Below, piece after piece: positions 8,508 through 64,000 of a stretch of DNA of 64,000 nucleotides. Under the pieces are notes generated by a model, which was not told where the DNA came from, did not search any database, and was given only the letters and a program-made list of their open reading frames with translations. Within the stretch, counting starts at the first letter, position 1. Every line of letters starts with the position of its first letter. This DNA comes from Okamejei kenojei. Lineage: Eukaryota. A program made the translations under genes and the position numbers. The DNA lies in the NCBI GenBank assembly GCA_035221665.1, contig CM069149.1:44888001-44952000 (forward strand). The letters run 5' to 3'.

Positions 8508-8682
8508 TGTTTAAGGAAGAACTGCAGATGCTGGAAAAAACGACGGTAGACAAAAATGTTGGAGGAACTCAGCGGGTGAGGCAGCATCCGTGGAGAGAAG
8601 AAATTGGCGACGTTGCGGGCCTTCTCTCCATAGATGCTGTCTCACCCGCTGAGTTCCTACGGCATTTTTGTCTACCATTGAA
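8508..8682. mobile_element. Penelope-tail-derived fold-back element
   Basis: Inverted arms GGTAGACAAAAATG...CTCAGCGGGTGAGGCAGCATC / GATGCTGTCTCACCCGCTGAG...CATTTTTGTCTACC. Confidence 0.8.
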
Positions 8683-10041
8683 ATATCTTAATCCGGTGTT
8701 GTTTTTTATACTAAATTGGCTGTGCTGTTGCGGCCGTTTCTACTGGTATCCCCGTTCCCGCGTTAAAGTTTGTCTCAAATAACTGTCGGCGCGGCCAGAA
8801 ATCTACATCGCTCATAAATGACGCGAATTCGTTCCCTCTCTCTGCCCTATGCTCCACAACAGGGTGGGGCGGGAGAAAGGGAGTGACCCTCAAGTTTCTG
8901 GAAAGGTAACTCTTAACGATACCTGGATCCTATGCAGGTAATTTAAGGTTTAAAACATTTAGGTAAAACAGATTTTTTTAGAAAGATCTATCAGTGCCTT
9001 CAGGTCATTTCTAAAAAGGGTTTGTTGTGAGGTTATTGTCAATGTGTATTATCGGAAATGAAGTGGTTAATATTCAGAAATAGAACCAGTTCCACATCGG
9101 TTCAGACCTAAGTGTTTGAATATGTGAAGAAAGGATGTGTTTTTCTGAATTGGTGCGGTTTGTCAGCGGCACCAAACACGTTGAATTAAAATGCCTGAAA
9201 TATCAAAGTCCGAAAGAAACGCCAGGTTATTTCAAGTAGTCTTCGGAAAACCGATCGACCAAATGTGATGACCTTCACACTGAAAAGATGTCATACCTTA
9301 TTCATAAGAAGGCAGGTTGTAGAAGAGGAGAGAGTTCACCCCCATGCTAACCTGATACAAGCTGTCAACAGGGAATGGTCTACTTTCTAGTTACAGCCTT
9401 AGTTTAAAATAATGAGGTGATTGAAGACGCATTAATGGTTTAAACCGCGGAGACCTTGTCTCCTCCGCCCCCAACTTTAAACGGGAGCTTTGAAGTTAAT
9501 GAGTCTTCAGAAACAGAACTTTACACACGGAAGCAGAAGAGACCAAAGACTGGACTACAAGTGGATCCGAATTTGCAAATGCCTTGCCTTTGAATAACTT
9601 TTCCACTTATCTATGTAGTCTGGTTTGAATAAGACAGCGCCACCTTAGGACGTGGAGCCATATCCAACTGGGAGTCTTCAACGGGGCGGACACATGATAA
9701 TCCCACCGGAATCCCAGCAGGAGTAATGACAACCTGGGTTGTATCTGGCAAAGCAGTCGCGCCAACAACCAATAAACTCTGTCACATTGGTTGTCAAGAC
9801 TTGTTTTCCGGCTCGGTCTACCATTGTTTCTTCTCCAGTTCTGGGGTTTGGGAAGAGTCCTAGAAACTCATGGGAAGAAGATGGACACAAAAAGCTGGAG
9901 TAACTCAGCGGGACAGGAAGGAATAGGTGACGTTTCGGGTCGAGAGCCTTTTTTAAACGGAATAATTAATGGGAAAAATGTTGTTATCTTAAATTCCAGT
10001 GGATTTGGGGCTTGACTTACCCGTATGTCATCTTGAGGGTA

Positions 10042-10064
10042 CCCCCCCCCCCCCCCCCCCCCCC
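10042..10064. repeat. Poly-C tract (23 nt); poly-G tracts also at 24425-24447 and 50061-50078
   Basis: Directly visible. Confidence 0.95.
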
Positions 10065-10188
10065 TTTAGTCTGATTCCACATCATCGGACGAAATTCCCG
10101 AAGGAATATTGGTGCCACATTGGAGATGAAAGATCAGACCTTGGCCATTCTGGGTAATCAGACCCGCGGGCAAGAAACTCGTCAGAAG

Positions 10189-10354
10189 TGTTTAGGAAGG
10201 AACTGCAGATGCTGGTTTGCACCGAAGATAGATACAAAATACTGGTGTAACTCAGCGGGGCAGACTGAAGAAGGGTCTCGACCCAAAACGTCACCCATTC
10301 CTTCTCTCCAGAGATGCTGCCTGTCCCGCTGAGTTACTCCAGCATTTTGTGTCT
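10189..10354. mobile_element. Penelope-tail-derived fold-back element with TSD
   Basis: Inverted arms around a hammerhead-like motif (10265-10292, GAAA mutated to AAAA). Flanks are AAACTCGTCAG(A/T)AG at 10175-10188 and 10355-10368. Confidence 0.85.
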
Positions 10355-10896
10355 AAACTCGTCAGTAGCCCTGACTAATATGTATCTCTGGAGCGATACC
10401 ACCGCCCCTGTTTAAGCAGTAATGGTGATTGCCCGACAGGTAGATCTTGGTTACAAAGTGTTTGAGGGATGTGAAAGGTGCTATCCAAACATACAAGTTA
10501 TTTCTTTCTGAACGACTGCAGCGCCTTATATTTATATTATTGGGGAAATCGTGCTGGAGGAGGCGTACTGTAATGAAACGGGTTATTTACTAAAGTTGTA
10601 TTCAACAATTCGACCTCGATTGTAACAATTTCTGGTTTGAAGTGAGCACCCCCTGTTCCTCTGGGTGTTTCCTGGTGGCGATCTTCGGATCACAAGAAGA
10701 TACTCAGATGCCTCGAATACATTACCATTTCTACATTACCCCATAATATCCAATAGTTCTTTCCCCGGTAAATTATTAATGTCGTGATCTATATTGTGAA
10801 GAACACTCGAAGCGGAATTGTCTTGGTTATTAGTGCAATCATATGTCTCCATAATGACTTTCCACTTTTAAAGCGGCCAGGATTAAAAGTGGGCAG

Positions 10897-10988
10897 GGTA
10901 CACAAAAAGCTGGAGAAACTCAGCGGGTGCAGCAGCATCTGAGGAGCGAAGGAGATAGGCGACGTTTCGGGTCGAGACCCTTCTTCAG
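10897..10988 (-). mobile_element. 92-bp Penelope-tail element with 10-bp TSD
   Basis: Near-identical reverse complement of 41363-41454. Flanked by AAGTGGGCAG at 10887-10896 and 10989-10998. Confidence 0.85.
10961..10988 (-). ncRNA. Minimal hammerhead ribozyme motif, intact core
   Basis: Reverse complement reads CTGAAGAAGGGTCTCGACCCGAAACGTC. Confidence 0.6.
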
Positions 10989-11197
10989 AAGTGGGCAGTT
11001 GGATTGGGCTAACCAGTCATCCTGGATCACTGATTACTGATCCTGGGACATTGCTGCGTCGCACCTGTTCCTCCATCGTCTTCCTTGTCATTACAAACAC
11101 AGAACAGGGAATGTTATTGATCCGGAGAGTTGCCGGTGTATCACTGACGCTTCAATGTAACAAACTGCTGGAGGAAAATGAACAGCTAGTTCCTGCT

Positions 11198-11387: not shown

Positions 11388-13052
11388 ACTGTACAGGACA
11401 GAAAGCTTCGATTCAAACAAGAAATCCCTCTGGAGAACAAGACGTGTCATCCATCCTCGCCATTTCTAAACATCCGCCTTGTTCCTTAACTCCTTTCGAC
11501 ACAAATTGAATCCCAACATTAGTATATGGCAGAGATCAGACTAAATTGTGAACCGTGCGGTCCCTTGTGCATTGATACACGATTCTTTGTTACATCTTTG
11601 TTACATCTGTTTGTTTATCTGATTAAAAGTCATAGCATCGGAAACTTTGTAGCGTTTTTATCCTGCTGTGTGCTCCTCTAGTATCTTTGCTGTGTACTAT
11701 TTGAGAATTAATCATATGGCAGAAATGAAACGAAGTATGTTACACAGCTCGTCTGCACACATGGATTTGAAATCTATTTAGATAAAGAATTCCATCAAAT
11801 ATCGTTTCCCCCAAAATGTAATTGGAGGATTGCGTTGCTCTCTGAGACTATTTTTTATTTTTTTAACGTTAAATGCTGACGAATTATTCAACAATAAATA
11901 AAGGCGGTCGTTAACGGGACAGTTAACAACTGCAAAACCCCCACAAACTGGAAAAGTAGGGACTACCTGAAGATAAAGTGGAATAATGTTACATTTAGTG
12001 AGATTAATATAAATTGATTTACATCAAATTCATTGTATCTCTAAATTTGTTTTTCGGTGTATGTTTTATGTATTATAAAACAGATATATATATAAAATAT
12101 ATATATAACAGATATATGTTTTTCTTGAGGTTGAGCAGGAAGTTCGGCTCTTGCAATAGTGTTGTTGGGACAGGTCTTCACGGAATGTAGTTATTGAGCA
12201 GGTGTTTTTATACACAGATGTTGTTTAAGATCTTTAGGATCTTTAGAACGGCCCCAAACGCTTCACGTTCAGTAAAGCACGTTTTGATAAGTGACCACTC
12301 TTCCAAGATAGGGGAGAAAAAGCCAATTAGTCAAGGGTCTGAATGGCCCGTATATCACAAATGGACAAAGAACAGGCACAGGTGAAACTTTGGCGCAATT
12401 ATTTGTTTTTAAGTCCACTACTCAATCCCCAATTGACGTGTTTATATCCTTATAGATGTGAACTATAATCGTGTAAGTGTAGATTGCGCCCAGGTACAAT
12501 GTGTGTGTCTGTGTGTTACAAAATGTATCCGTTCGTACATGTGTAAATATAGACGTGTTTTGAATATATGAGAGTATGTACAATGTATTACTCAACAACA
12601 CAATAATACTTTTATCAGAGATTCCTTAGTAAAAGCAATAACTGGATGTGTGTTTTGTCGAATTCATATCGTTCACAGGGAAATACATTAACGGGAATGG
12701 AACTGGAGAATGCCTCTCCAAAGCGTGTTCGAGAGAGACTTAAATTTGTCGTAAAGCTGTTCAAACGACAACTCAGAAACGATCCTTTGAAAATGAAATG
12801 TAGCATTATAGTTTCTTGCAGTTCCTTGTCTCCACGTTGCAGAGGACAGGTACATGTTCCGAGTTTGTTCCGCCAGGAATTACGCTCGTGTTCACTTCGT
12901 CCGAAAATGTCCCACATGCCAGTCAAGAGATTGAAAGTCCCAATCTCCTCTCTCGGGGTAAACTCAACGCCCCGGGTAAATATTTCAACCAACGATATCA
13001 AATGAGGGCATCAGAGAGGTGAACCAGGCGGTGCCCAAAGGTAGAATCCCAG

Positions 13053-13274
13053 CAAAGTGCTGGAGTAACTCAGATGGTCAGGCAGCATCTCTGAGATAAA
13101 GGATAGGTGACGTTTCGGATCGGGACACTTCTATTTTTTGGTCTGAAGAAGGGTCCCGACCCGTAACGTCGCCTATCCCTTATCTCCAGAGATGCTGCCT
13201 TGACCCGCTGAATACTCCAGCACTTTGTGTCTATCTTTGGTATAAACCAGCATCTGCAGTTCTTTGTTTCTACA
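13053..13274. mobile_element. Penelope-tail-derived fold-back element
   Basis: ~80-bp inverted arms centred on CTGAAGAAGGGTCCCGACCCGTAACGTC (from 13143). Confidence 0.85.
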
Positions 13275-14908: not shown

Positions 14909-17089
14909 GTGAGTGTCCTCGTCCTCGCCGGACTGTGTCCGCTGATGAGGATTCCAACGCCAAATAATGAACATTGCTCCGCTCACTGATCCTGGAGGTT
15001 GTTTGCGGATGACAGGAGCATGCTCTAGAGTGGAAGCAGCGCCGTATTGTTCTCCTGCCACCCCCGTGTTGTTTTCCCTCCGCTTGGAGTTGTGTTTGCA
15101 GAGTTGAAGGAGCATTGATGAGATGCCTTTCCCCCCTAACCCGCCCCGCCCGCCACTATCTCACCCTGTGCTACATTTAATTTTATGATTTGCCTTCAAA
15201 GGATTCTAGTTTACTTTTTTTTTCAGTGTTTGTGGTTGATTTATGCCTGTTTGTTCACAGCTTCAGAAGTCATTGGAAACGTATTTCAGCCAAACTCTAA
15301 TCTCAGTTGAGAATGGTCAAGTGGTCTTCAGTTTTAGTGGTATCCAGTGGTATTTTAGCCCTAGCTTAGAAACACAATTGCAGATGCTGGTTTATACTAA
15401 AGGTAGACACAAAGTGCTGCAATAACTCAGCGGGTCAGACAGCATCTCTGGAGCCTTCAGAGTTCCAGCCGCGCCATTTCAAACTCTTGCCACAATCGCT
15501 GTGCATGCATGGGTCGCATTTTACAAACCAGTTATCTTGCTGTGTTCTACACTTCAGTTCAGATATATATCCGTGAATAAACCTGAACAAGAAAAGTTTG
15601 TGATAACTTTTTGCCTAGTTTGAATTTCGATGAAGAGCGCGTATGATATCTAGCGCTTCCCTTTCCCAGAGTATCAGTGGGTAGAGTCCAGCTCTCTCTC
15701 ATTCGGAGGGAGTTTGGATCCACGAGGCGGTGATTACTTCCTGCCCTCAGTGTCTTCCATTGTTGAAAGAAGACCAGATATTGGGACGGGACGGTTGTCA
15801 ATGGAAGGAGGCAGTTTTTTCCCCCTTCTTGGAAACTGACTTGACGCACATGTGCCTCCCAGCTGTAAAGTGGGTTGGCTGGGGGGCGAGGCAGACTGCG
15901 CCTTGTGCGAGGTTTGTGTACATTCAGCTCCGGCCCAGTTACATTGGGGCCGTGGACTGACAGGCGATGGCCGGGATACGATTGCATGCAGTTAATCCGT
16001 GTGAGTGGGAGGGAGGGAGGGAGGTGGGGGGAGGCCCCTGGCGGGTTTAGAGACCTCTCCTATCTGCTGTGTAGCGGCTGTTTCCTTGTTTTGGAGGGGG
16101 GGAGGGTAGAGAGGGAACTAGACCTGCAGTGTGCCGGCACCAAGGCCTTAGCTCCAGCACGTTTTCCTCTTGAATAAAATGCTCTGTTGAAGAAATTTAA
16201 ACGCAAACACGCCGACCTCTGCCACAGCGCGCTGGCTGCGTCGCTGAGCGCGGAACAGGGGCGACTCGGGCTTTTAGAGAGAGATGGGTCTCAACTTTCC
16301 ATGGAGTCTTTGTAACTAAACACGTTGAAGCGGTGGCGACTGTGTGAGCAATGGTGACGCGGGGCTTATCAGGTTTACACAGTCACCTGGTATTTACCAA
16401 GTGTCTCCGAATGTCCAAAAAACGGATTATTGTTGAAGTAACGTTTTAATGTAATATAATATTCTCCCAACCATTAAAGTGAGCATCATAAATCACTTTA
16501 ATTTCCTTTTAAAGGCGGTGGAAGGCATTTCCCGACGTGCGGTTCCACACTAACACAGGATAGGTGAAGCGTGGAGGTATTTTAAACGGTTCAGATGAAG
16601 TCAATACAGGGGGATGATGTTGCCTGCAATTGTTGATTAAAACCAGATCTGCCTTCAGTCAGATAGCGGCCCAGGTCCAGAGTCGACCCCCTCCGTTTCC
16701 CTGGCGAAGAAAGGCCTTTGCGAGAGCGAGGTTGCACGATTTATCCTCTACGATGCGCTTGTTCACTAATCACAAGTATAATTAAAAATACTTCGAAAAC
16801 CAATCTTATTGAATCTACTCGTTCCAATTTGGGGGGGGGAGCGCAATTAAATGTTTAAACTGCTAAATGGATCACATTTTACTTCCAGCATCCTTCACAG
16901 ATGGCTAAATTTGTCCAACCTGTTGGCAATTTTCAAGTGAATTATTGTGCAGATCTTGGAACTATTATCGGCGATTTGGCATCGTCTTTAACATGGGTAA
17001 AGAGGTTGCTACAAATATCAAGCGAGTCGTTCAGCGCCAGACATTTTCTGTGAAGTAGAAGCGAGCGAATTGGACGTGGTGAAACTGAG

Positions 17090-17900: not shown

Positions 17901-17902
17901 GA

Positions 17903-18185
17903 GGAAGGAACTGCAGATACTGGTTTACACCGAAGCATGCTGGAGTAACTCAGTGGGGTCAGGCAGCATCTGAGGAGAAAAGGAATAGGCGACGTTTGGG
18001 GTCGAGACCCTTCATCAAACTTGGTAGAAACAGGTCTGGCACTGTCTGTGGAAAGAGGAATATTTGTGGGGCAGATGAAACGGTCCACTCATAGACACCA
18101 TAAATCAGACACGGGATGAAGAAGTTCTCCTCCTCTCTCCGAGATGCCGCCTCACCCGCAGTTTCTCCAGCATTTTTGTCAACCC
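17903..18185. mobile_element. Penelope-tail-derived fold-back element inserted in an old CR1
   Basis: Left arm GAAGGAACTGCAGAT...GGGTCGAGACCCTTC; right arm GAGATGCCGCCTCACCCGC...CAGCATTTTTGTC. Confidence 0.7.
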
Positions 18186-19009: not shown

Positions 19010-19935
19010 GATGAGAGTTGAGTGAGGACAATTGTTGTTCAGGTTGGAGTCCTGTGTGAGTGGTGTCCCAGGGCTCGGCGCCCATCCACTGTTGTTTGTC
19101 ATCGACATTAACGATTTGGATGACAATGTTGTTAACATGGAGATGCAACGGAATGAAGATAGACTCAATGTGCTGGAGTAACTCAGCGGGTCAGGCAGAA
19201 TCTCTGGACAATAAAGATCGGTGATGTTTTGGGTGAGAAGTCACCCATCCATTTTCTCCAGGGATGCTGGACCTGTTGAGTTACTCCAGCACTGTGTCTA
19301 TCTACATTATAAACCAGCAGTTTATACTGAATGCAAGGAACTGCTGATGCTGGAATCTTGAGCAAAACACAGACTGCTGGTGGAACTCAGCAGGTCAGGC
19401 AGCTTCTGTGGAGGGAATGGATAGGTGACGTTTCAGGTTGGGACCATTGTTTAGATTGATTCAATGTTTTGGTTCGGGATCCCTTTATCATTTTGATTCT
19501 GAAGAAGGGCCCCGACCTGAAAGGCCACCTATCCATTCCCTCCACAGATGCTGCCTGACCTGCTGAGCTACTCCAGCATCTTGCTTTGCTCAGTGTAGTT
19601 AACATGGTTAGTCAGTTGGCAGATGATACAAAAAATGGTGGTGCGGTGGACAGGGAAGAAAGTTATTTAAGAATACAACTGGATCTAGAGGAATCGAGGG
19701 AGTGGGGTAATGAACGGCAGGTGGAATCTAACTTGGACAAGTGTGAAGTGTCACATTTTGGTAAGGGCAGGATTTGCACAGTAAATGGCAGATGTTGTAC
19801 AACAGAGAGACCTCGTTCCCTGAAAGTGGCGATACAGGTAGACAGGGTGGTGAAGGTGGCATTTGGCACTCTTGCCTTCATCAGTCATTGAATACAGGAG
19901 TTAGGGTGTCATGTTATGACTGCACAAGTTTACAT
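19010..19935 (+). mobile_element. CR1 LINE RT fragment interrupted by the insertion at 19141-19593
   Basis: SGVPG...PLLFVIDINDLDDNV upstream and SQLADDTK...LDKCEVSHFG downstream are RT motifs. Confidence 0.8.
19141..19593. mobile_element. Two adjacent Penelope-tail fold-back elements interrupting a CR1 RT fragment
   Basis: Two sets of inverted arms. The block is flanked by TGT(T/A)GTTAACATGG at 19127-19140 and 19594-19607. Confidence 0.8.
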
Positions 19936-21469
19936 ATGAACGGAATGTTTCTTTCTGTTCAGTTCTAGACCCTAAAAGGAAATCTGAAATCTATTTAGAA
20001 TTCCTCTAAATTTAGGAGGAAAGTGGTTTAATATCTATGCCAGAAATGAGTATTTATTAAAAGATAAAGTTGTCTGCATGCTTGCATTTATCTGTTAGCT
20101 ATCTGTTCTCTAAAGTTCTGAATTAATTTGAATTTCTTCCCAACCCTGCAACGTATTGTTCATATATCTAAATGTCTACTTTTAATCACCATAAAATTCT
20201 ACCTTACTATTTTCATGGCATGTTTAATAACATTTTTTCACAACTGACTGTTCAAAACTCATGTTTTCAACTGGCACTTGGTCAATGGCCTCCACCAGCG
20301 ATGACTTGGGATGTTCCATTTTATTTGGATGAAATTTTCTATTCACTTCTAACCTCCTCGTTCTCTTCTTCACCCTTTTCCTATTCTTCCTCCTTTTTCC
20401 AGGGTATACAGAGTAAGTCACTTTACGAATATCATTTGTTATTACTGAATAGCTGCCTGCAACAGTAAAGCTCAAGTCACTAATGTTCAAATGCACTCTC
20501 TATTTTAATATGACTGAGAGTGATGTTTGGGCCACTGTTAACAATAAAAAAAATATTAAAAAGAGAAATGGAAGTTGGACAACCTGTAACTGATAAAGCT
20601 CATGTTTCTGGAATGAGTTGTGAGGGAAAATCTGCAGTAGATTTTATCTTTTTCATTTATGTACTTTGAGTGATATCACATCTGAATTATACCTTACATT
20701 GATGCCAACCATTTAGTTTTACTGACCTGTAAGTAGGAGTGAGACCATTCCTAGATTAAAAAAAAAAATCAATGAGCCCTCTTAAACAGCTATGGAAATA
20801 TAAATGAAATACTAAAGTGAATATATTTTGTGTTAATAGTGACCATTTCTAATAATCTAATCCAAGTAATATCAAGATTCCTATCCTTTTAGTATTATTA
20901 TTAAATACCTGACAAGTTAATGCTTCTGCATACAATCTGTCTTCCTGTTGTATCTAACTGTATTTCATCACCAGATTATAAAACTTAAACTAAGATTAAT
21001 TATAGTGATTTTTATATTGCAACTTTCACATTCATTCAAAAGAGATCATTACACAGTCAATTTGAAATGCTGTAACTTTTCATTAAAAAATACCTCTTTG
21101 ATTGCATCTTCTGTGATATTGTGAACGACTTCAATGTTATTTCAGATGAAGGATGGCTGTACCTTTGAATCCCTAACCTGAAGCTTGTACACTTGAAAAG
21201 ATTGAGTGGGTGGGAAGTGAACCACTTGCCCGACATATTCACTCTCTGAATGATTGTTACTGGAATGATAGATGCAGTAAAACATTGTGTTATCATTGAT
21301 CCCAAAATATCAATGTTTGGAGGCTCAACAATGGAGTTGCCTTTGAATATTGGTGAGATTATTGAGTTTTTTCCTGTTCTGACTGGTCACTGACTGTGAT
21401 CTACCATGTTTCAGCCCATATATGGATGTTGTTCAGGTGACTTCTACCAATAATGCGAATTAAGTATAA

Positions 21470-21890
21470 AAGACAAAGTGCTGGAGTAACTCAATGGATC
21501 AGGCAGCATCTCTGGGGAAGATGGACATGAATGAGCAACAGCGGGCCAGGCTGGGTTTCTACACTTGCGCACGGCAACAGGGAAGAATGGAACATGATGG
21601 AGTTCAGATAGAGGCACTCCAGTCTATCCCGAGGGAGGGGGCGAACTAGCATGGAAATAAATAGGGACCAAGCATGGGCAAATGGGACTAGCTTAGATGG
21701 GGCATCTTGGTCAGTATGGATGAGTTAGCCCAACGGCCTGTTTCTGCGCTGTATGACTCTGTAACTCTAAATGTCTGAACCCAAAACATCGTCAGTCCGT
21801 TCCCTCCCGAGATGCGGCTTGACCCGCTGAGTTCCTCCAGCAGTACGTGTTTTGCTCAAGATTCCAGCATCCGCAGTTCCCTGTGTCTCT
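21470..21890. mobile_element. Penelope-tail fold-back element whose arms are separated by a CR1-tailed insert
   Basis: Left arm ~21470-21530 and right arm ~21775-21890. The insert ends in a CR1-type tail (GGCCTGTTTCTGCGCTGTATGACTCT). Confidence 0.65.
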
Positions 21891-24009: not shown

Positions 24010-24130
24010 CTGGGTCCCGACCTGAAACGTCACCTATCCATGTTCTCCAGGGATGCTGCTTGTCTTGCTGAGTTATACCAGCACTTTGTGTCCTTTTGTG
24101 TAAATCAGTAACTGCAGTTCCTTGTTTCCA
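24010..24130 (+). mobile_element. Penelope-tail element
   Basis: GGGTCCCGACCTGAAACGTCACCTATCC...CTGCAGTTCCTTGTTTC. Confidence 0.75.
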
Positions 24131-26295
24131 CTAGTGTTGTTTCCACTGTTGAGTTTAGCCTTGGGTATCATGTATCGAGATGTGACTGAGAAAGAGTATT
24201 GATTGTGTAGTGTTCTCAACTTGGTCACAACCGCAGTTGATACTTGCCAGTTTAGCTTTAGCTGTGCGTGTGCGCGTGTGTACTGTGAGCATGAGTGGTG
24301 CTATCAGGTTCTGGACAAGATACACCTTGGAGAAGCAATGGATGCAGATCACGGCACTAGGGGTGCAGTATGATGTGGAGAATGAGGAAGATAGGGACAA
24401 AGATAGGCCAACCTGGCGGAGAGTGGGGGGGGGGGGGGGGGGGGGGGCGCAAGAGAGGAAAAAGGTCGTGGGGAAGTGGCCTCTACCAAGGATTTTCTAA
24501 AATCAGTTCTTCTGCATCGACATGAAGCAAAGAGTGACGTATCTCCCATTCAGTTAAGGGATCCTCGATTAAATATGGAGGGCACAACTATGATAAAGAT
24601 GGGCCCAGAACACCTTGCTATTCACTGTAAGGTTTATTCAACACTTCTGGCTTTGCCCATCTTGGAGCAGCAAAAAAGCTGCACCATGTTGCAAGTGGAG
24701 GAAGCGGATAATTTTACTCCAGGTGAATAGAATTTATCTGACTTCTCCTCCAGAGGGAGGAGAGACTTTTGGCTTTGATGAGCCTGGGGGCATCCCAGAG
24801 GTGCAGAGTTCCGTTGACTGCACTTTGGTTACATAGTGGGTGAACTTCAAGACACCAGAATGTACTGGTGCTATAGGTGTAGGATGTAACATGATAGTTA
24901 TTTCCGGGGATCCATGTAGCAGTCAGACTGCACCAATCCACAGTGCCATTCATATCTGAGCCAACACACACAAGGTAGGGACTGAATGCGAATTGCCATC
25001 ATCAGTCCCATTCATGTTCTCCAGAGATGCTGCCTAACCCACAGAGTGACTCCAGCATTTTGTGTGTATCGTTGGCATAAACCAGCATTTGTTTCTACTC
25101 GTGCACCAGAACCATTATGGAGGAACCCCGCAGTTTTCTGTAGTAAAGGCTGTCACGATTTGTTGTGGTGCGCTGCATGTTGCTCTGTGTCGTAATGGCT
25201 TTGATTTTACCTTGTTGGCCTTCACAATGTTAAAATATACCCGGCTGACCATAACGAGAATAAAAACATGATCGCAAACCAAGCTGGCAAATCAACTAAT
25301 ATCAAGTAGCCCACGTCTGCTTTCCAATGAGCCCCTTCATACTCATCCAAAAGCCGAGTATTGTCAGCACAGCTATCCTACAGGACGAATAGTACACGAC
25401 ATCTCTCTTCCTTCATGTCTCATTGCTCCAGGCCTTCGCTGTTCTGTCAGAAAACAGTGGGGCCTGCATTCTGCCCTGTTGCATCGCCTCTTGTCAAAAG
25501 CTGCAATCACCTTAGAATTGACTTCCTCCAAAGCATGTCCTCTGTAAGTGGTGCAGGCTGTCTTTAATTAATGTTCCCCAACTCAAACGGTTTGAACCTC
25601 TCGCAGAATTGTGCCCCTTGGAAACAGTCAGCAGCATAGTTAGTGACAGCTGAACACCAAAATTAAAAGAGCAATATGAGAACATGTTATTGTTCGTGAT
25701 AAGTGGCTGGATGGTGATCTTAACCAGTACACTTTAAATGAATTAAGAGCTCCATTAAAATAACTGATAAAGCAATTTGGTGTGATTGTGTTACAAATTC
25801 TCGGTAATTTCAAGCATATGTTTAAAAGTTTAAAAAAACACAAAACATTGTAATGCAATTTTAAGTTGTAGCAAAGGGAAAAGACATTTAGCCGACAAAA
25901 TCTGTGCCAGATCACTGGTAGAACTCCCTTACGCTTTCTATCCATGTATCTCAGATTGGGAATGTAAACTACCGCCCTTCACATTCCCAATCTGAGAGAT
26001 AAAAACTCCTTCATCTGTGTCATAAATGGGTGATGCCATGTTCTGAAATGGGGAGGTGCTGGAGGCAGATATAGTAGCCTCTTAAATGGCTCTCGAAGGC
26101 ATTTACAGACTTTTACATCGCCGCATGGACATGCAAGAATAAGAAGCATGTGCAGTCAGAGGAGGTTAGTTTAACTTGGCAAGGACATTGTTGGCTGATG
26201 AGCCCGTCCCTGGGGTGTTCCATTCAATGCTCTGTTCTATAAATGGTGTGTGGAAAACTGCACATAGGTGGAGATAATGGAACCAAGGAGAGGGA

Positions 26296-26609
26296 TCAGT
26301 CTGAAGAATGGTCTCGACCCGAATCGTCTCCCAATCCTTCTCTCCAGAGATGCTGCCTGACCCGCTGAGTTACTCCAGCAGTTCAAGTGTTCAAGTTCAA
26401 GTGTTCAAGTGAGTTTATTGTCATGTGTCCCTGATAGGGCAATGAAATTCAGCACACAGAACATAGTAGGCATTTACTACAAAACAGATCAGTGTGTCCA
26501 TATATCATTATATAAATACATACACACATGAATAAATAAACTGATAAAGTGCAAACAACATTTTGTGTCTACCTTCGATTTAAACCAGCATCTGCAGTTC
26601 TCTCCCACA
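26296..26609 (+). mobile_element. Penelope-tail element with nested Rex1/Babar-like 3' end (~26381-26558, minus)
   Basis: Flanked by CAAGGAGAGGGA at 26284-26295 and 26610-26621. The internal insert starts with GTTCAA repeats plus GAGTTTATTGTC and resembles 42520-42670. Confidence 0.8.
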
Positions 26610-38159: not shown

Positions 38160-38217
38160 AAACACCACATCCGTAAAATATTTTGCTGAAATGTAATGAT
38201 TGCATGTTATACAGATC

Positions 38218-42320: not shown

Positions 42321-42519
42321 AGATGGGCACTTGCCATCCCATTCTCTTACAATTTTGCATATATCATAATTAACCATCTCCCTTTAATCCTCTAGAATTA
42401 CCCATTAGATGCTAATTCTGAAAGCAGTGACAATAACTTACAAATTCTGAACCCCTATTTTATCCTGTTTACATTTTCACTTCTTACTCTTTCTGCGGGT
42501 TCATTAATTGTGCAACACG

Positions 42520-44359: not shown

Positions 44360-44595
44360 TCAAAACATAATGATGCAGGAACTCAGTGGGTCAGGCAGCA
44401 TCTTTGGAGGGAATGGACAGATTATCTTTCAGGGTCTTCGGAGAATTTTTCAGACCCTTCTGTGTCTAAAGAGGGGTCCCAATCTAAACAGTTGTCTTGT
44501 CCATTCCTTCCAAAGATGCTATCTGACCCACTGCGTTCCTGCAGCACTTTATGTTTTGCATAAGATTCCATCATTTGTAGTCTCTTGTGTCTCCA
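44360..44595. mobile_element. Diverged Penelope-tail fold-back element
   Basis: Inverted arms GCAGGAACTCAGTGGGTCAG / CTGACCCACTGCGTTCCTGC. Confidence 0.7.
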
Positions 44596-46571: not shown

Positions 46572-46772
46572 TGTGTAGGAAGGAACTGCAGATGCTGGTT
46601 TAAACTGAAAATAGACACAAAAGGCTGGAGTAGCGCAGTGGGTCAGACAGCATTTCTAACAATATGGAATGGGTGACGTTTTGGGTCGAGACCCTTCTTT
46701 CTGAAATTCACCCATTCCTTTTCTACAGAGATGTTGTCTGACCCGCTGAGTTACTCTCTCTTTGTGCATATC
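46572..46772. mobile_element. Penelope-tail fold-back element with TSD
   Basis: Flanked by TTCAGTCT(G/T)CAA at 46560-46571 and 46773-46784. Confidence 0.8.
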
Positions 46773-47214
46773 TTCAGTCTTCAAAATTTTTGATTTTCAA
46801 AAAAGAGCCATTTAAATCAAATAGGTTTCCAGTGCTCGATTCATATAGATTCATGGAAAAATCCAACCTACATTTAGCAGCATAAATCATTATGATTTGT
46901 GGTTGTCAAAGCAGTGATGTCTTTAATTGGATCCATGCATTCCCCCCACCCATCCTCTTGAGGGTTAAACCCTTTGTAATGCCCAGTTGGGAATGTCTGC
47001 AGAAACTGTGGACAAGCCCTACAGATTTCTCCACAGATTCCTGCTACTATCGCCATTTTTGATTGCTTCCTTTCAAATTGCAGTATTAACTCTACAGAGC
47101 AATTATGTGACTTTGGCCAAACAGTACAAGTTATGTTACAGCACAAACTAATCTAGAGCATGAGCAGAATCGTCATATTTAATCTATCTGCATGAATGAA
47201 TAGTGGTTCAGTTC

Positions 47215-47335
47215 ACAATGCTGGAATAACTCAGCGGGTCAGGCAGCATCTTGTGAGAACATGGTAAAATCTGAAGGGATCCATGATCTCGTGAAATCCT
47301 GCCTGACTCGCTGAGTTACTCCAGCATTTCGTGTC
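47215..47335. mobile_element. Short Penelope-tail fold-back element
   Basis: AATGCTGGAATAACTCAGCGGGTCAGGCAG / CTGCCTGACTCGCTGAGTTACTCCAGCATT. Confidence 0.75.
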
Positions 47336-47462
47336 TGAATATGAGTAATATGGATTGTATCTGCTTAATAAATATAAATGGAATTCCACACATCAGTCAT
47401 CCATCTCTAAATGGGACCATAATCTGCTGTGATTATACTATCAAAGACGAGTTGTTTCTCCT

Positions 47463-49270: not shown

Positions 49271-50286
49271 TGTCTCCCCCTGTCCAATGTCAAATAGTTT
49301 ATGCTATACCACTTGAGTTTCTCTCTCAAATTTGCTCCATATTTACTGTAATTTGCAAAAAAAAGTCACACCAGATATAACATGCTATTATGCCACAAAT
49401 CGATTGACTCCAGAAATTGGGCAATTCCTCGTTGATGAGGGTCTTACAGCATTTTATTTACCCGACTTAAATTAAACAAGAATTATATTTTCCTTAAAGG
49501 CAAATTTATTTGTTTTTTGTTCAAATTATTTCTGAATCACACAAGTAACTATCCTCTGATGTCACTGGACAATTTGCTTGTATACTTCCCACTTACTCAG
49601 TTACACCTTTTCTCTTCCAAGCTATCCTGATATTCTTGTGGTTATCAAGTTACTGACTTTACTTTGGTAACATCACAATTATTAAAAATGTCTCTTTGAT
49701 CTATATTTTATGATAGGCACACCCTACTTAGTATGCTTGATCTGTGATGTTAGCTCTGTACTTTGATTCCCAGATCATGAAATAACCATTTGGCATGGAA
49801 TAATTTGTTACAAATGAACCTGGATCCATAGACTATTATGACCATCTTTACTGATAATTAAATTATAGCCCAATATTATAAAGAAGGGGGAGGTTTAACT
49901 GGCGTTTATAATTCAACAGCCTGACAATTATACTAATTTATACATTTGTTCTTTGATTCCTTCATACTAATTACATCCATTTGAACTACTGGACATACTA
50001 GCCAACTATTCCTGAAGTTCCTGTATGAAAAAAAAAACGTGCCCCTCAGGTTACCGGAGAGGGGGGGGGGGGGGGGGGAGGTTTCTAGAACATCAGATGT
50101 ACAACGTATTTGTAATGCAAACCTGTATCATCTGTCCCTGCGTTAAGAAATGTGAGTAGAAATGTTGAAGATAAATTTTGTGTTGATTTATTTACATTTT
50201 TTCCATGAGAGCCAATTTTATTCCACATCTCAAATTTTTGGCAAGTGACTTGTGAATATTGCCAGGACAAATTTCTGTAATGCAGG

Positions 50287-50382
50287 ATAGACACAAAATG
50301 TTGGGGTAACCCAGCGGATTAGGCAGTATCTCTGGAGGAGGAGGAGTGGGTGATGTTTCAGGTCGAGACCCTTCTTCAGACG
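50287..50382 (-). mobile_element. Penelope-tail element
   Basis: Ends in GATGTTTCAGGTCGAGACCCTTCTTCAG, the reverse-complement hammerhead-like motif. Confidence 0.75.
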
Positions 50383-56720: not shown

Positions 56721-59283
56721 CTTAGGCATAGTCAGGATTATTAATACAGGCCATTTACTGGTGCAAGGAGAAGAGAAAATAAAAGGTTTGAGGAGCGAGT
56801 ACATGGCGTGGAGCTCTCGGACTCCCCCGCGGTTGAGTTTGCCATTGGTCTCGCTCGGATGGAACGGTAAGGACAGTTCCCTAGGTAACCAAGTTCTTAC
56901 AATCCGGTTCACTTTACATTAACTCCTTAGTTACTTGCCCCACAGAACAATCCTCCACCTGCAAATCACCAGGATTGAATTACATAAATTCCCAAAATTA
57001 TTCAATTTCGACTATGCATAGTCAAAATTTTGCATTTAATAATTTTGAACCCATTAAAAAAAAGAATTGGCGCATTCCTAAGTGTTGGAATGGCATGTTC
57101 GCACTCTGCAAAAATTTGCATTTACAAATTATCCGCATACTTATGCTTTTCTGCAATTTTGAAATAATAGCAGGTTTTTTTTCGCAGTGAAATAACATTA
57201 TAAACCAAAATAACCATATTACATTTTAATACATCTACCACAAATTTTCAGCCTCTCGCTTTCCAAATGGAAGTCTGATTTTAAAAAACATAGATTTGCA
57301 TAACGACTGATGGAAATAAGCATAGTTGCATTTTGTTTGGTTTTTGCAGAGGAAAACACATACTTAAACCCTTAAAAGTAAATATTTTAGGTTCATTTTA
57401 TTTTCCCAACTATTTAAACTGCCAATTAATTGTATTAGAGGTTTGTGTTCCATCAGTTAATGTTATGTAATCTCTTCAACTTGTACCATGTACTTGAACA
57501 TGACTACATCGCACAATAGCCCCATCTTTAGCATTTGAAAAAAAACGGCGCCACCGTTCCTTAACATTGGTCAATAAAAAAATAAAACACTTTGTGATGG
57601 CGACGAACAGATTGTCAAGGAGGATCGTCTAACATCAAAGAGTTAATTAAAAAAGAATAGCAGTGGAAAGAGGCCTTTAGAGGTAGGGGACAGGGGGAGG
57701 AGACTGAAACCAGTGTGAAAAATTGCCTCTCGTGGCGCATGTTCCAATTGGCCTCAGGACGGAATAGTAGTGAGAAGTGAGAATTTTTGTTTCGTCAAAG
57801 CGCTAGTCTAAATACAAATGATGCAGTCGCGAAGATGAATAATGCATGTTCTCTAATCATTTCGAGTACATTCTTGTCAATTAGTTCCATATACATCAGT
57901 GACAATAACATTGGTGGGCCACAGTTGCTAACACATTGTGCGCAAAAGGCCTAGTAAATGATTCCAGAGAATGGGTTTTTTTTTGTGAACACAGGGTTTT
58001 TGTCAAGAAGATAGTGGGATTCAAAAAATAAGTTTCTTGATATTTTTGTTGCTTAAAATAGGTGTAACTTAGTCCGAACGACGATGAGTAGCTTTGCAGA
58101 AAAGAACAAAGTTACAGTTTTGAGTTAAATGAAAAATTACTTTCCCATGATTTTCAGAATGCTGAATACAAGTATATTATTTTCACTCAGTGAATAGAAT
58201 TCTTCCCCTCTCCAATTCCCCTGCTGTGGGGGAAGGCGAGGCACATCTGTTCGTATATGGTATTGTTGGCTGTTGGAAGAAACCACACCTCATCATTTCT
58301 GTCTTCCTGTCTCCCGAAGTTGTTTCTCTTTAATGGGAACAGACAATAGACTGCCCCCTCCCGGTTGGTCTGGACGCATTGCAAGAACAACATTTCCACA
58401 GTATCACAGAGAGGAAGTGGATGTTAAGATTTGTAATAATAGTGAAATATTGAAAATTCTCAAATGTAAAGTCCAAACTGTTTAGCATTTTATCTGTTAC
58501 TGTAAAATAATAGGAAATTCTCTGCACTCAAACTTTAAAAAAGAGCTCATCATTTTAGAATAGAAATACGAATTATCGATTTTCTGTTATTAAAAAATAC
58601 TTCTTCATTGGAAATACTTGGTTATTTAGCAACTCTTTATTTGCTGTTTGGAAAAAAATGTTAGTGTAAAGACATTTGTTAGAGTTGTGTTAGAGTTAGT
58701 ACAGGCAACACAATCCATCTAGGCCATTTTGAAAGTAAAATGGCTCCCCGATTGTGGTCAAGTTGCCATAAGAAATATGAAAAAATATATATCAAGTCTT
58801 CACAAGCTGTATAACTGCATCTCATTGTCCTGCGACTAGCTGGTAATATGATACTTGGCTGTGACGTCCCATTTTCTTGTTTATTCCAAAGTTAATTGTC
58901 CCCTTGGTATAGGGAAGATAAAAAATCATCAGTCTTCGTCAGAATCTTTGTAATTATCTTACCCCCAAAGGTGATAGAAGCCAGACCATTGGTTGTATTT
59001 AAGGCAGAGATAGGTAAATATTTGAAAGCATGAATTGCAGTTTATACACACACAGTGGAGAAGTCAAAGGGAGAATAGTTCAGCCATGACCATATAGAAT
59101 GGTGGTGCATGCTTGAAGGGCCAAGAGGCCTACAGTTCCAATATTCATGTGTTCCCAATCATTGTTGGTAATTTCTACAGCAAAACATTTTATGTGGCTA
59201 CCATGAGTATGATTACATTCTTTGGTCAGGCTCATGTGATATTTGGCCACTTTGATTCAATACCAGGCATCTATTGATGAGGG

Positions 59284-59444
59284 TAGACAAAAGTGCTGGA
59301 GAAACCCAGTGGGTGAGGCAGCATATATGGAGCGAAGGAAACATTGCCTATTTCCTTCGCTCCATAGATGCTACCTCACCCGCTGAGTTTCTCCAGTACT
59401 TTTGTCTACCTTCGATTTTCCAGCATCTGCAGTTCCTTCTTGAA
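59284..59444. mobile_element. Penelope-tail fold-back element with 16-bp TSD
   Basis: Flanked by CATCTATTG(A/T)TGAGGG at 59268-59283 and 59445-59460. Confidence 0.85.
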
Positions 59445-60464: not shown

Positions 60465-60605
60465 TTCCAGTTTTCTCCCCTCTACCACAGTTACTCTGAA
60501 GAAGGGTTCCGACCCAAAACGTTACCTATCCATGTCTTCCAAATATGCTGCCTGACTCACTTTGTGTTTTGTTTGTAAACCAGTATTTGCGGTTCCTCAT
60601 GTCTA
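60465..60605 (+). mobile_element. Penelope-tail element
   Basis: CTGAAGAAGGGTTCCGACCCAAAACGTTACCTATCC. Confidence 0.7.
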
Positions 60606-61717
60606 CGATGGGAATGCCACCAACAGGGTGACATTGTTCTCCATTGGGAATACCATTGGTGTGGTTACAGTTAATACTGTTCCTTAGTTGCCTTAAAATT
60701 TCTTTATAGAATGTTGATGGCTGGTAATCATGTTATAGAAATGTTAACTGCCACAGGAAAGCATAAGCCTAAATGTTGTTGGACCCTTCTAAAGGCTTAA
60801 ACAAGCTACTGTAGAGCTGAAAATTTGTCATAAATAAATAGTTCCACATCTGGCATTCGGGCAAAAGAAAAATATGGATTAGTTAGGCAAAAATGGTTGA
60901 ACTAAGGGATCCTATCAGGAAAGACAGTTGCAACATAGTCCTGGGGCTATGATGATAGATTGGCCTCAATCAATTAGAATTATCTTCCCCATATTGCATC
61001 AGCCTCAATTTTGCTGGCACATTTGGTGCTTTAATCACTCAATTGGCATCATAATGTTGATGGTAGTTAGAACTCCACTTTTTCTTGGACTGAACTTTAG
61101 TCCAAGAAGTTGGATGACAGAATCAAGGTTATCGTAAACCTGAAGGTGATTAATGAGTTCTGAAGAAAGGTCATTGACTTGAAATGTTAGATCAGATCAT
61201 GCTGAATCCAGACTCCCACTTGGAATTACCACATACAAGTATTCACAATTCAGATGTAGGGGGCCATTCTGGCCCAGGTGGGAAAAAGTCAACTGTGATT
61301 AGACTCAGGCAGTATCGCATGGCGGTTAATATGGCTGCACAAAAAGATTCACCAAATGTCAAAGGTGTTAAAAATATAGAGATTTTGTCTTTAAAGGAAA
61401 GATAAAGGTAATTAGACCCCCAAAATGTAGTAACAACAAATTACTTCTGAAGTAAAGTAAAATAATTTAAAATATTTTAAATAAAATATTATTTGTTCTT
61501 TCCCTCTTAATTCTCCAGGCCTGGAATCCCCATTGTCATGTTCGATTGGTGTAGGATTAGGACAGTGATTTACTAGCAATGCTGGGCTCTGCTCCTGGAC
61601 ATGCAGAGTCTATCAGTGGAGTGCAATCACAGGTAGCATCTGCCACACTAAGTCTTGGTCTTCAACATTCAATATTATGGACGGGCAACTATTAATAAAT
61701 GATTTGGGATTTTTGCT

Positions 61718-62224
61718 ATTCTTGCTATTGAGGAAATGCAGCGTAGGTTCACAATGTTAGTTCCTGGGATGGCGGGACTGTCATTTGCTCAGAGAATGGA
61801 GCGGCTGGGCTTGTATACTCTGGAATTTAGAAGGATGAGAGGGGATCTTATTGAAATATATAAGATTATTAAGGGTTTGGACACGTTAGAGGCAGGAAAC
61901 ATGTTCCCGATTTTGGGGAAGTCCAGAACCAGGGGCCACAGTTTAAGAATAAGAGGTAAGCCCTTTAGAACGGAGATGAGGAAACACTTTTTCACACAGA
62001 GAGTTGTGGGTCTGTGGAATTCTCTGCCTCAGAGGGCAGTGGAGGCTGGTTCTCTGGATACTTTCAAGAGAGAGATAGATAGGGCTCTTGAAGATAGCGG
62101 AGTCAGGGGATATGGGGAGAAGGCAGGAACGGGGTACTGATTGTGGATGATCAGTCATGATCACATTGAATGGCGGTGCTGGCTTGAAGGTCCGAATGGC
62201 CTACTCTTGTACCTATTGTCTATT
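61718..62224 (+). mobile_element. CR1/HER1-like LINE 3' end
   Basis: MQRRFTMLVPGMAGLSFAQRMERLGLYTLEFRRMRGDLIEIYKIIKG...GYGEKAGTGY, with a CTATTGT tail repeat. Confidence 0.93.
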
Positions 62225-64000
62225 AATCATTTTTTCCACTTACCTTGAATTAATGGCATTGGGATTGTTAGTTCAATATTGCAGTGATTATACTACTGTT
62301 ATAGCATTCATAATGGCAGATTGATGATAGTGTTGGCTTAGGTACAAACACATAGTGAAACAGTACATATATATACATATATATATTACTAGGGAACCTC
62401 CCATTCCAAAGGTTGATGGTCTGCATCTTGCTTTGTTAAACATTGTCTGATGTGAACAAGGCCTCACTGTGTTACGGCAATTTCTGCCACACATACTGCA
62501 AGGGAAGACAATGCTGAGGAGTTTTGCTAAATATAGTTTTCTCAAACCCTCTAAGACAGCTGAGTTTTCCATTTATTTTCTCTGCTGAATACTCCTTCAC
62601 CATCCTGAATAATCAAATCTAAAAGGTTCTAACTTTTGGGGACTTTGAGCAAGATTTTGGTTGCGGCAGCCTTGGCCATTTAGTTTCACACCAATCTACA
62701 GCAAAGCAGTTTGAGATCAAAGTGCTGCTTCTTCACACCCATTTTATCCAACAGCCAGTTCCGATGAAGAGATCCAGACCTGAAGTGTTAACCATTTCTC
62801 TTTCTATAGATGTTGCCTGACCCACTAAATCTTTCAAGCATTTACTACTTTTATTTCATATTTTTAGTATCTGCATTTTTTGATTTTCTAAATTATATGG
62901 GAGTCTGCAGAAGTAGACATGTGACTAACAGTAGTTAGACAAGACTATGCACACGGTTGCTTCACTCATTATTAGATAGTTCAGTTTCATTTATTTTCTA
63001 AATTAAAGTATTTATGGTTAATGACTAGCAAGCATTCTTTTAGATATTGCAAAATAGTGAGATTATGGATTAATGCCAAGATGTGTGAACTCAGCCAGGC
63101 ATGTTTTTCTGTTTTGGGAACTGTTTGTTGTTGCAAAAGGGAAGATATATAGACACACGAGAGACTATAGCTGGAATTTCTAGCAAAACATACAGTGCTG
63201 GAGGAACTCAATGGAGGGAATGGACAGTCAACATTTTGGCTTGGGACTGATTGTTTTCTCGATGTCAAATGTATGGATTCCCAGCTAAATGATTCTCGTA
63301 AAATCCAAATTTGGAATGGACCATAGGCAGGTTGATGGAGTGGAATTCTTCCACTTTCACAAGCACTGCTGGATTGCCTTTGAAGTTGAATATACCCTTT
63401 AGCTGAAGAAAGTCACCAAAGCCACAATCCAGACATCCGTTTGTTCCGACTGACATTGCCAATGGCAAAGATACATGTCCTTTATGGACATTGAAGTGTC
63501 ATCTGACTAATATGTCCTTTGTTCCTCTGCATTCTTTCTCTATTTTCTTTCCTTCCATTCACTGCCTCCCTTATACCCTTTCTCTCCTCTATTCTTCCTC
63601 TTCCTTCCTGCTCTCATTCCCGCCACCCATCCCTCCCTCTTCCACTTCTCTCCATTTCCCTCCTTCCTTCAGAAGCTCAAGAGTTGATTAGCCCTGGTCT
63701 GAGTAACGGGCTGGTAAAAGCTGGTGCATGGGATTTGTGAATTGTCGTGATGTTGGGTAGATCACGGAGGGCCTGCTTTGCATTGCAGGGAAGGATTTTC
63801 AGACGCAGTTCCAGAAGTCCCTACTGAGATCAAAACCAAATGCAACCAAACCAAATCATAATGTTATTCCTGGCCCAGGGCATGATCTTTACGGACAAAG
63901 ATCAAGGAAACCAAATATAAAATGTGGCATGCTGTACCGATGTCCTACAGCCAATTGCTATTTATTTATTTACTGGGTGCTTCATTCAGTGTGGAACTGA

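Follow-up and report, generated by a model that had tools for sequence, protein, structure and literature searches.

Canonical insertions of EN+ Penelope-like elements (PLEs) consist, in the sections of the reports cited here, of a pLTR with an adjacent inverted, 5'-truncated copy and a tail at one end only, all within a single TSD (PMC3846280; PMC8557442). The cited part of a later study explains the tail as the stretch between two RT start sites, without need of ribozyme cleavage, and demonstrates internal RT starts in vitro for an anole element, with the same start sites on both strands (PMC11167929). The Neptune clade is defined, in the portion of the source cited, by a Cys-rich CX2-5CxxC linker between RT and EN (PMC8557442). 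Metazoan PLEs also carry minimal hammerhead motifs: those of fish Neptune and Poseidon elements are mostly solo, and in Schistosoma opposite-strand hammerhead pairs lie 100-700 bp apart (Cervera and De la Pena 2014, PMC4209133).

We analysed a 64,000-nt stretch of DNA (the window), in which a profile search identified 46 arms in 32 loci, spanning 8515 to 63247 and covering 4338 bp; the reversed window, used as a control, gave 0 profile matches. These arms of a ~128-nt PLE 3' unit make up 6.8% of the window, and their insertions amount to one locus per 2 kb (Table 1). The 28-nt hammerhead motif has 8 matches with at most 3 mismatches, against 0 in 100 shuffles. Head-to-head fold-backs account for 14 of the 32 loci, and the remainder are solo arms, pieces, or one long copy. 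By their sequence, the short repeats are 3' ends of a PLE, single or paired head-to-head. The initial annotation of this DNA had described about 30 elements over this span, homologous to the PLE end, and our counts bear this out; it missed the head-to-head architecture. The homology that it described to the terminal region of the PLE at 40728-41455 is real but confined to ~41354-41455, the tail being absent from this long copy, and the upper end of its 90-450 bp size range reflects two adjacent fold-backs (~440 bp, 19154-19595) and not one element. Pattern scans of metagenome, viral and prokaryote collections returned 0 loci. About 7% of the window is PLE-end debris and, as it stands, a matter of repeat annotation: the copies are real but ordinary members of a known insertion type.

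Table 1. PLE-end copies and related features, with position, strand (a point for fold-backs) and support
Feature	Position	Strand	Support
Fold-back, tail on left arm	8515..8683	.	weak 10-bp TSD, 1 mismatch
Solo arm, no tail	9878..9955	-	profile
Fold-back, tail on left arm	10195..10362	.	14-bp TSD, 1 mismatch
Solo arm, no tail, exact motif at 10961-10988	10899..10989	-	10-bp exact TSD
Fold-back, tail on right arm	13052..13268	.	profile; TSD looked for, none found
Solo arm with tail	15376..15453	-	profile
Fold-back with less certain pairing; left arm tailed, spacer of 120 bp	17904..18184	.	profile
Fold-back, partial tail on right arm	19154..19319	.	profile
Fold-back, tail on left arm; extra partial motif copy in spacer	19333..19595	.	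profile
Solo arm, no tail	21466..21527	-	profile
Solo arm with tail	21769..21885	+	profile
Solo arm with tail	24012..24125	+	profile
Solo arm with partial tail	24974..25091	+	profile
Solo arm, tail not seen; 2 mismatches in motif	26300..26393	+	motif, profile
Tail-only piece	26556..26603	+	profile
Fold-back, tail on left arm	30247..30498	.	profile
Fold-back, tail on left arm; right arm ends at unit position 51	31257..31402	.	profile
Exact hammerhead motif in right arm of a fold-back	31353..31380	+	
Old solo arm fragment	33782..33840	+	profile
Fold-back, old and weak; 48% identity between arms, E 8e-4 for left arm	34657..34806	.	profile
Solo arm with tail	38213..38327	+	profile
Fold-back, tail on right arm	38577..38748	.	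11-bp exact TSD
Solo arm with tail	39492..39603	-	profile
Solo arm fragment	40279..40330	-	profile
5'-truncated PLE copy: ORF end, 3' UTR, hammerhead motif	40728..41455	+	13-bp TSD at 40715/41456
GIY-YIG endonuclease end of PLE ORF, 128 aa stop to stop	40742..41128	+	Pfam GIY-YIG
Start point of short copies; pyrimidine tract plus CAG	41358..41364	+	loose contig ends at 41359-41361
Minimal hammerhead motif, one stem II mismatch, catalytic letters intact	41363..41390	+	
Fold-back, tail on right arm	44355..44588	.	profile
Fold-back, tail on left arm	46578..46777	.	12-bp TSD, 1 mismatch
Fold-back, tail on neither arm (single exception)	47212..47346	.	profile
Solo arm without tail; catalytic letters retained, ACGT palindrome not	50281..50380	-	motif, profile
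Fold-back, tail on right arm; arms 91% identical	59279..59440	.	16-bp TSD, 1 mismatch
Solo arm with tail; 45 nt upstream pyrimidine-rich	60495..60600	+	profile
Old solo arm with tail	62767..62876	+	profile
Old solo arm with partial tail	63170..63247	-	profile

Among the solo arms, the tail-only piece at 26556 may once have belonged to the 26300 arm and been separated from it by a different repeat at 26411, and the pyrimidine-rich sequence before 60495..60600 is possibly the UTR of another subfamily.

The long copy terminates at the inner of the two 3' sites, without the tail. In tblastn searches 40727-41122 matches PLE RT-EN proteins (E about 1e-49), and the ORF end matches an 889-aa RT plus GIY-YIG protein (E 7e-26). 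Its Pfam GIY-YIG match (E 4e-4, 21 bits) falls marginally below the cut-off of 22.6, and the best matches of the same frame, 61-87% identical, are PLE-type proteins of chondrichthyans. The window copy, being truncated, does not reach the RT; homologues P0023 and P0005 carry RVT_1 plus GIY-YIG. A Cys linker, C-x4-C-x2-C, precedes GIY-YIG in the close homologues P0001, P0003 and P0005 and also in P0023; the window copy starts within this Cys-rich linker, where it has an in-frame stop. On the strength of the linker in its homologues, the parent element is probably a Neptune-type Penelope-like retrotransposon. In related genomes the ORF end has apparently been absorbed into gene models (P0001, P0004).

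The fold-backs show a consistent asymmetry. A ~35-nt tail is carried by 23 of the 46 arms, and in 13 of 14 fold-backs it lies on exactly one arm, with 0 of 14 having it on both (binomial p 0.0009 against independent arms). The only case of (+,-) neighbours is that of two separate fold-backs. A TSD score of at least 10 is reached in 6 of 32 loci, compared with 2.3% of 300 mismatched-edge controls, and 4 of these 6 TSDs flank an entire fold-back; in the other 26 loci a clear TSD was not found. Arms of the same pair are more alike than re-paired arms (0.79 vs 0.72 +/- 0.012, p 1e-4); only 2 of the 14 pairs consist of mutual best matches. Head-to-head arms inside one 10-16-bp TSD, a one-arm tail of ~35 nt (30-40 bp in the published cases), heavy 5' truncation and a GIY-YIG ORF end in the longer copy all agree with canonical EN+ PLE insertions as set out in the cited parts of those reports (PMC3846280; PMC8557442; PMC11167929). 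Unlike the units described there, the arms here measure at most ~130 nt with no ORF between or behind the fold-back arms, and they occur at the density given above with 5' ends piled up at the hammerhead edge, features for which the cited passages give no counts. The fold-backs are a very short form of the published "inverted copy plus tail" PLE insertion.

We consider it probable (roughly 80%) that the short copies are dead-on-arrival products of the ordinary target-primed insertion of a Neptune-type PLE, not a self-propagating unit; the initial annotation was right to treat the copies as PLE 3' ends and to suggest that PLE RT and GIY-YIG made them. The GIY-YIG of the element would nick target DNA ~10-16 bp apart (TSDs are seen in 6 loci), RT would start inside the RNA at one of two sites ~35 nt apart, and, with both target strands primed, the outer site would serve for one cDNA and the inner site for its partner. 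Joining of the two short cDNAs would give a hairpin with a tail on one arm, which is the pattern observed. The template being uncleaved, most cDNAs would end within the hammerhead motif or immediately 5' of it; by our own estimates there is an even chance that the RNA begins there, about one chance in three that RT stalls at structure, and about one in seven that another cause, such as splicing, is responsible. In the cited part of the in vitro study, the template RNA must run well beyond the RT start site (PMC11167929), so the inserted ends would be without the protein-binding part. Several observations count against this explanation. Of the 46 window arms just 1 has ORF sequence attached, where gradual truncation should leave far more; the arms share a sharp 5' edge; and the many loci lacking a clear TSD, the few mutual best matches between paired arms and head-to-tail joints in contigs (see below) all fit it poorly. 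The strand equivalence of the anole start sites does not by itself predict the one-tail rule. This rule, together with the sharp 5' edge, could inform how the PLE dimer uses two RT start sites in vivo, and the edge also bears on where PLE RNA begins; the in vitro study left both steps open.

The 3' ends of arms fall at two fixed sites, ~35 nt apart, and 5' ends accumulate at the 5' edge of the motif, both in the window and in genome-wide contigs, with 18 arms starting at unit position 5 or lower. When 15 short arms from these 18 were compared with the long copy (38577 and 46578 being omitted because their upstream sequence is the partner arm), they matched at most 7 nt upstream of the core. 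Breakpoints are therefore not random, and a short dedicated template RNA keeps some plausibility. The initial annotation had named random, unique breakpoints without subfamilies as the mark of simple truncation; the 14 fold-back junctions do all differ, albeit in a small sample over several subfamilies, but the ends are non-random, and the identical internal junctions that it proposed to look for were shared by none of the fold-backs. The letters of the start point at 41358..41364 would suit either a 3' splice site or an initiator-like word, and we infer that at this edge of the motif either the RNA has its 5' end or RT comes to a stop. The case for an RNA start is weak, since the initiator-like word recurs, 6 times within 238 nt here, and since transcription in D. 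virilis starts not at the hammerhead but 46 bp ahead of a 75-bp intron whose end lies there. Splicing was rejected for joints that skip from the UTR to 41357-41360, as the skipped parts lack an initial GT and subfamilies with another UTR fit equally; a spliced first exon was not found on the copies, where the best upstream 30-mer scored 19 and the 99.9th percentile of the background is 20.

Contigs of two DNA runs cover the ORF end heavily, have loose ends at 41359-41361 and 41454, and rise 3-4-fold in summed depth at 41363, although contig depth does not measure copy number and subfamilies with a different UTR contribute to this step. Such a step, the sharp 5' edge and the 45 of 46 arms without ORF sequence would also be expected if a dedicated non-autonomous RNA of ~130 nt, running from the hammerhead edge to the tail plus some downstream sequence, were made at few source loci and inserted by PLE protein in trans, with fold-backs made at insertion; non-autonomous PLE derivatives are described in the cited parts of two reports (PMC8557442; bioRxiv 2026.07.22.740005). 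We regard this as unlikely. The short copies cluster by sequence, and the ORF-bearing copy belongs to one of these groups: the 10899 arm shares 96.8% identity with the long copy and stands next to it as sister in the arm tree (support 100/97). Whole-genome contigs contain ORF-end sequence in great abundance, neither a source locus nor a special head was seen, and the 5' leader of an ordinary PLE RNA would yield identical products. It is similarly doubtful that such an RNA is a SINE-like parasite of Neptune elements, for which the protein dimer would use the outer start site on one strand and the inner on the other. The arm tree, with 4 well-supported branches of 37 and 6 arms shorter than 60 nt left out, leaves the number of subfamilies not fixed.

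The consensus of the arms has the core letters CUGAnGA, GAAA and UH plus an extra nucleotide after A9. It resembles the minimal hammerheads of metazoan PLEs in its CUGAnGA and GAAA boxes, the extra nucleotide between 9 and 10.1, G10.1-C11.1, the palindromic 15.2-16.2 and the mostly solo, dispersed copies (PMC4209133). Helix II has 4 bp here compared with 7-8 bp in Schistosoma PLE hammerheads, and helix I has 2 bp as in the D. virilis variant (PMC4209133). Of the 8 matches just 2 are free of mismatches (10961-10988 on the minus strand, and 31353-31380); a third core previously called intact, 41363-41390, is mismatched in stem II. The elements had been described as built around a hammerhead, which identifies the minimal type-I motif correctly but overstates its part, since the whole core is aligned in 11 of 46 arms and CUGAnGA/GAAA/UH is retained in 4 of those 11. 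The copy at 10961-10988 begins at the core itself, directly adjoining its TSD, and is therefore without the 5' strand of stem I, and the 31353 copy is predicted to pair with the opposite arm of its fold-back. Checked in 10 copies, stem I runs to 0-3 contiguous pairs, the long copy having 2, which is short of the usual 4-5 bp of helix I. Across 14 selected arms 94% of helix II cells are paired and 0 pairs have changed at both positions, no better a result than shuffles give; RNAalifold favours a different pairing, and stem II is predicted not to form (pair probability at most 0.02). Cofolding of two copies gave no canonical stem-III dimer, a kind of prediction that is weak for the hammerhead motif, and an Rfam search returned no hammerhead family at E up to 1, only sub-gathering hairpin or low-complexity matches. 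The motif is likely a passenger in the inserted copies, a predicted ribozyme. As a cause of the 5' ends, ribozyme cleavage was rejected: the ends ignore the predicted cut site, with 35 of 46 arms starting upstream of it and 1 of 46 within positions 28-33.

Non-LTR retrozymes are likewise short, non-coding and PLE pLTR-related, with a type-I hammerhead (PMC7229834; bioRxiv 10.64898/2026.07.22.740005), and retrozymes are reported in the sole chondrichthyan sampled. Tandem units would here self-cleave as dimers, circularise and reinsert as monomers, a route to which the ACGT palindrome of the type-I motif and the head-to-tail joints from 41454 to 41360 (9 and 18 contigs of the two DNA runs) would conform. 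We think it very improbable. Retrozymes are head-to-tail tandems cut to unit length at the ribozyme, whereas the copies here are solo or head-to-head, with neighbouring arms on opposite strands; no tandem array of the unit appears among 9 TRF rows for the window, the ends miss the cut site and the unit instead ends at PLE start sites with TSDs, and stem II is not predicted to form. Among the 15 contig joints listed (241 further, and some joints uncounted) there was no dominant fold-back joint, an observation that was not used as evidence, hairpins assembling poorly.

The hairpin itself could in principle be the mobile unit, either MITE-like or Pol III-transcribed from antisense A/B-box-like words. 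TSDs do enclose whole hairpins, and word pairs resembling the A-box/B-box consensus are present 4 times in the window, in each case within an arm and antisense to the unit. The junctions, however, are 14 different ones, the ends are asymmetric, the B-box-like word is hammerhead stem II and varies between subfamilies, and ARAGORN finds no tRNA; we give this reading hardly any credence. SINEs are short, abundant sequences, retro-inserted with TSDs, that have a Pol III (tRNA-like) head and a 3' end in common with an autonomous element. The PLE-end copies are alike in being short, abundant and TSD-flanked with such a 3' end; they differ in that the unit is collinear with the PLE end, its ends follow PLE start sites, and no tRNA-derived head was found (ARAGORN 0 genes; no structured-RNA family at the Rfam gathering score). 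The independent SINE- or retrozyme-like unit put forward in the initial annotation is not supported, because neither tandem arrays nor a tRNA head nor shared junctions were found in the window. Searches for RNA families can be misled by hairpins of this kind, one of which drew a match to a plastid hairpin family of Rfam at E 3e-5.

The short copies of the Penelope-like element (PLE) in the window are end insertions of the ordinary type, and their population is real and very dense. When the long copy, a 5'-truncated PLE at 40728-41455 (+), was compared with the window by BLAST, 31 matches were obtained beyond the self-match, all confined to 41354-41455. An iterated profile search lengthened this unit, the PLE 3' end, to about 128 nt and recovered 46 copies (hereafter arms) at 32 loci, which add up to 4338 bp (6.8% of the window); the reversed window gave 0 matches. 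The element count, span and density put forward in the initial annotation are borne out by this search. The 28-nt minimal type-I hammerhead motif, found in the long copy at 41363-41390, has eight matches in the window at up to three mismatches (two exact), compared with none in 100 shuffled windows.

Fourteen of the 32 loci are head-to-head arm pairs (fold-backs), the others being solo arms. Arm 3' ends form two groups, an inner site coinciding with the end of the long copy and, roughly 35 nt further out, a second, outer site (profile positions 87-103 and 109-126; two deleted arms end at 51 and 62), and an arm was counted as carrying this outer extension, or tail, if it reached profile position 108. 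One arm is tailed in 13 of the 14 fold-backs, neither in 1 and both in 0 (p = 0.0009 against independent arms); among the 13, one tail is partial and in one other pair the untailed arm is deleted. Tails are present on 10/18 solo arms. Target-site duplications (TSDs) scoring at least 10 flank 6 of the 32 loci, versus 2.3% of 300 controls, and were not detected at that score around the remaining 26; four of the six surround a whole arm pair, and those pairs are therefore single insertions. Identity within pairs is 0.79 versus 0.72 for re-paired arms (p = 1e-4), with mutual best matches between partners in only 2/14 pairs. Identical internal junctions, sought among the short copies as a sign of subfamilies, were not shared by any: all 14 fold-backs differ. 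An inverted copy with a tail at one end, within one TSD, is the typical form of PLE insertion (PMC3846280, PMC8557442, PMC8969392), and the fold-backs likewise take this form.

The long copy is flanked on both sides by an exact 13-bp duplication and is the only arm joined to ORF sequence; tblastn with four proteins found no other ORF pieces in the window. It contains an ORF end with a GIY-YIG match (E = 4e-4, slightly below the Pfam cut-off), a 230-nt UTR and the hammerhead motif, and aligns with the C-terminus of an 889-aa reverse transcriptase (RT) plus GIY-YIG protein. The named proteins closest to the frame at 40742-41128 belong to Leucoraja, Mobula and Rhincodon (61-87% identity), which suggests that the window, eukaryotic DNA, comes from a cartilaginous fish. 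In homologues, the endonuclease is preceded by a C-x4-C-x2-C linker, a type described as a Neptune mark (PMC8557442, PMC3846280), and on the basis of this linker the long copy would be assigned to Neptune. Three annotated chondrichthyan homologues (P0001, P0004 and P0009) fuse this PLE's endonuclease end to unrelated domains, probably as gene-model artefacts or by exonisation.

The two fixed 3' ends, the TSDs, the one-tail rule, the unique junctions and the 5' ends upstream of the cut are established directly here; the mechanism would carry over by analogy from the anole Poseidon element (PMC11167929) to a putative Neptune element. In that system the tail is bounded by two neighbouring positions at which RT initiates within the RNA. 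The two strands of the target are each cut and extended, a dimer is predicted for the protein, and insertion is normal in ribozyme mutants. Each fold-back would then represent two joined short cDNAs, one per RT start site, each primed on a different strand of the target; in the anole study the strands did not differ in RT start site (PMC11167929). The anole RNA is required up to +172 while RT starts near +111-118, and inserted ends would lack the downstream binding region and be dead on arrival.

Arm starts (n = 46) fall at unit position 5 or below in 18 cases, at 6-29 in 17 and at 30 or above in 11, local alignment eroding the apparent starts of old arms; the predicted hammerhead cut lies between positions 29 and 30, a zone (28-33) in which just one arm has its start. 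In 15 short arms that reach the core, the upstream match to the long copy is at most 7 nt, and no upstream sequence is common to them; two (50281 and 60495) have pyrimidine-rich flanks, which may derive from the UTR of a different subfamily. When contigs from the DNA runs X1 and X6 were mapped on the window sequence at 82% likeness, summed depth was 3.0 and 4.1 million immediately upstream of 41363 and rose to 13.3 and 12.3 million immediately downstream; these sums are not copy numbers, and their step stems partly from subfamilies with other UTRs. Prominent loose contig ends lie at 41359-41361 and 41454. ORF-end sequence is abundant genome-wide in these contigs, showing that the genome has many protein-coding parents, in fragmentary form if not intact.

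Arm 5' ends would gather at the motif edge if the RNA begins there, in which case RT, starting near the mRNA 5' end, would run off after 95-130 nt; with ordinary mRNA giving such products, a separate element would be unnecessary, and a short dedicated template RNA behind the short copies seems improbable. An RNA start agrees with an initiator-like word at 41358 and with the sole TATA word of the 3' UTR, 29 nt upstream of the short-copy start point (41331-41361), a pair similar to one remarked in a rotifer pLTR (PMC3846280). Such initiator-like words are common, however (6 in 238 nt), and the D. virilis transcript starts some 120 nt upstream of the motif and contains an intron whose 3' end is at helix I (PMC4209133). 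The 41331-41361 stretch doubles as a pyrimidine tract plus CAG. The main alternative to an RNA start is that RT stops at the structured motif.

The motif consensus comprises CUGAAGA, an extra A, a 4-bp stem II, GAAA and CGUC. Fish elements of the Neptune, Poseidon and Xena groups are known to carry minimal hammerheads, which also occur dispersed across genomes; the extra nucleotide is a conserved trait that the window consensus shares, and in vitro activity is low (PMC4209133). Eleven of the 46 arms span the core, four with catalytic letters intact; stem I measures 0-3 bp (10 copies checked), 14 selected arms contain no two-sided pair changes, and the folding probability of stem II does not exceed 0.02 in any of five contexts. 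The 31353 copy is predicted to pair with the left arm of its own fold-back. At 41370-41400 the purine-rich core is predicted to pair with the post-cut pyrimidine run and not to form stem II, possibly an off-state of the motif. Poor predicted folding would be compatible with protein-assisted cleavage of the predicted ribozyme, as demonstrated for an anole element (PMC11167929). Because fold-back partners lie on opposite strands, no cis dimer is possible between them. Contig joints from 41395-41398 back to 41359-41365, present in all four runs, are short same-strand hammerhead duplications, and an additional, partial copy of the motif lies within the spacer of the 19333 fold-back (19455-19497); two same-strand motifs about 37 nt apart are the only arrangement that might function as a cis dimer.

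The SINE- or retrozyme-like nature suggested in the initial annotation is not supported: no SINE head was found for the unit, and whereas retrozymes are head-to-tail tandems (PMC7229834, bioRxiv 2026.07.22.740005), no such array of the unit occurs there. Joints from 41454 to 41360, head-to-tail repeats of a 95-nt unit, appear in 9 (X1) and 18 (X6) contigs and could stem from a template used repeatedly or be the beginnings of retrozyme-like arrays. Word pairs resembling A and B boxes, with at most one mismatch per word from the consensus, occur at four places in the window, all antisense to the unit.

In the literature covered, largely outside subscription journals and judged partly by titles and abstract openings (two whale shark genome papers included), no paper was found that deals specifically with this family in chondrichthyans or gives counts for the one-tail rule. 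The family may already be catalogued in Repbase or Dfam, and the min-HHR alignments of PMC4209133 or the retrozyme tables of preprint 2026.07.22.740005 could already include it.

Other features located in the window
Feature	Coordinates	Strand
475-aa stop-to-stop frame, F-box and leucine-rich repeats (LRR)	55013-56440	-
Second repeat family, 370-480-bp pieces	22810-23206, 37690-38158, 41953-42321, 47463-47857, 61745-62224	
(CAGCC)n array, 28 copies	13744-13884	
Unclassified repeat pieces	817-1017 with 30938-31126; 7225-7501; 26411-26611	
A-box/B-box-like word pairs	17946-18010, 46631-46694	+
A-box/B-box-like word pairs	26310-26372, 10274-10336	-

Two frames of the second repeat family gave no match in Pfam; frames of this family resemble LINE (CR1/L2-type) 3' ends. 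The 475-aa frame resembles a host F-box/LRR gene without introns, presumably FBXL14-like.
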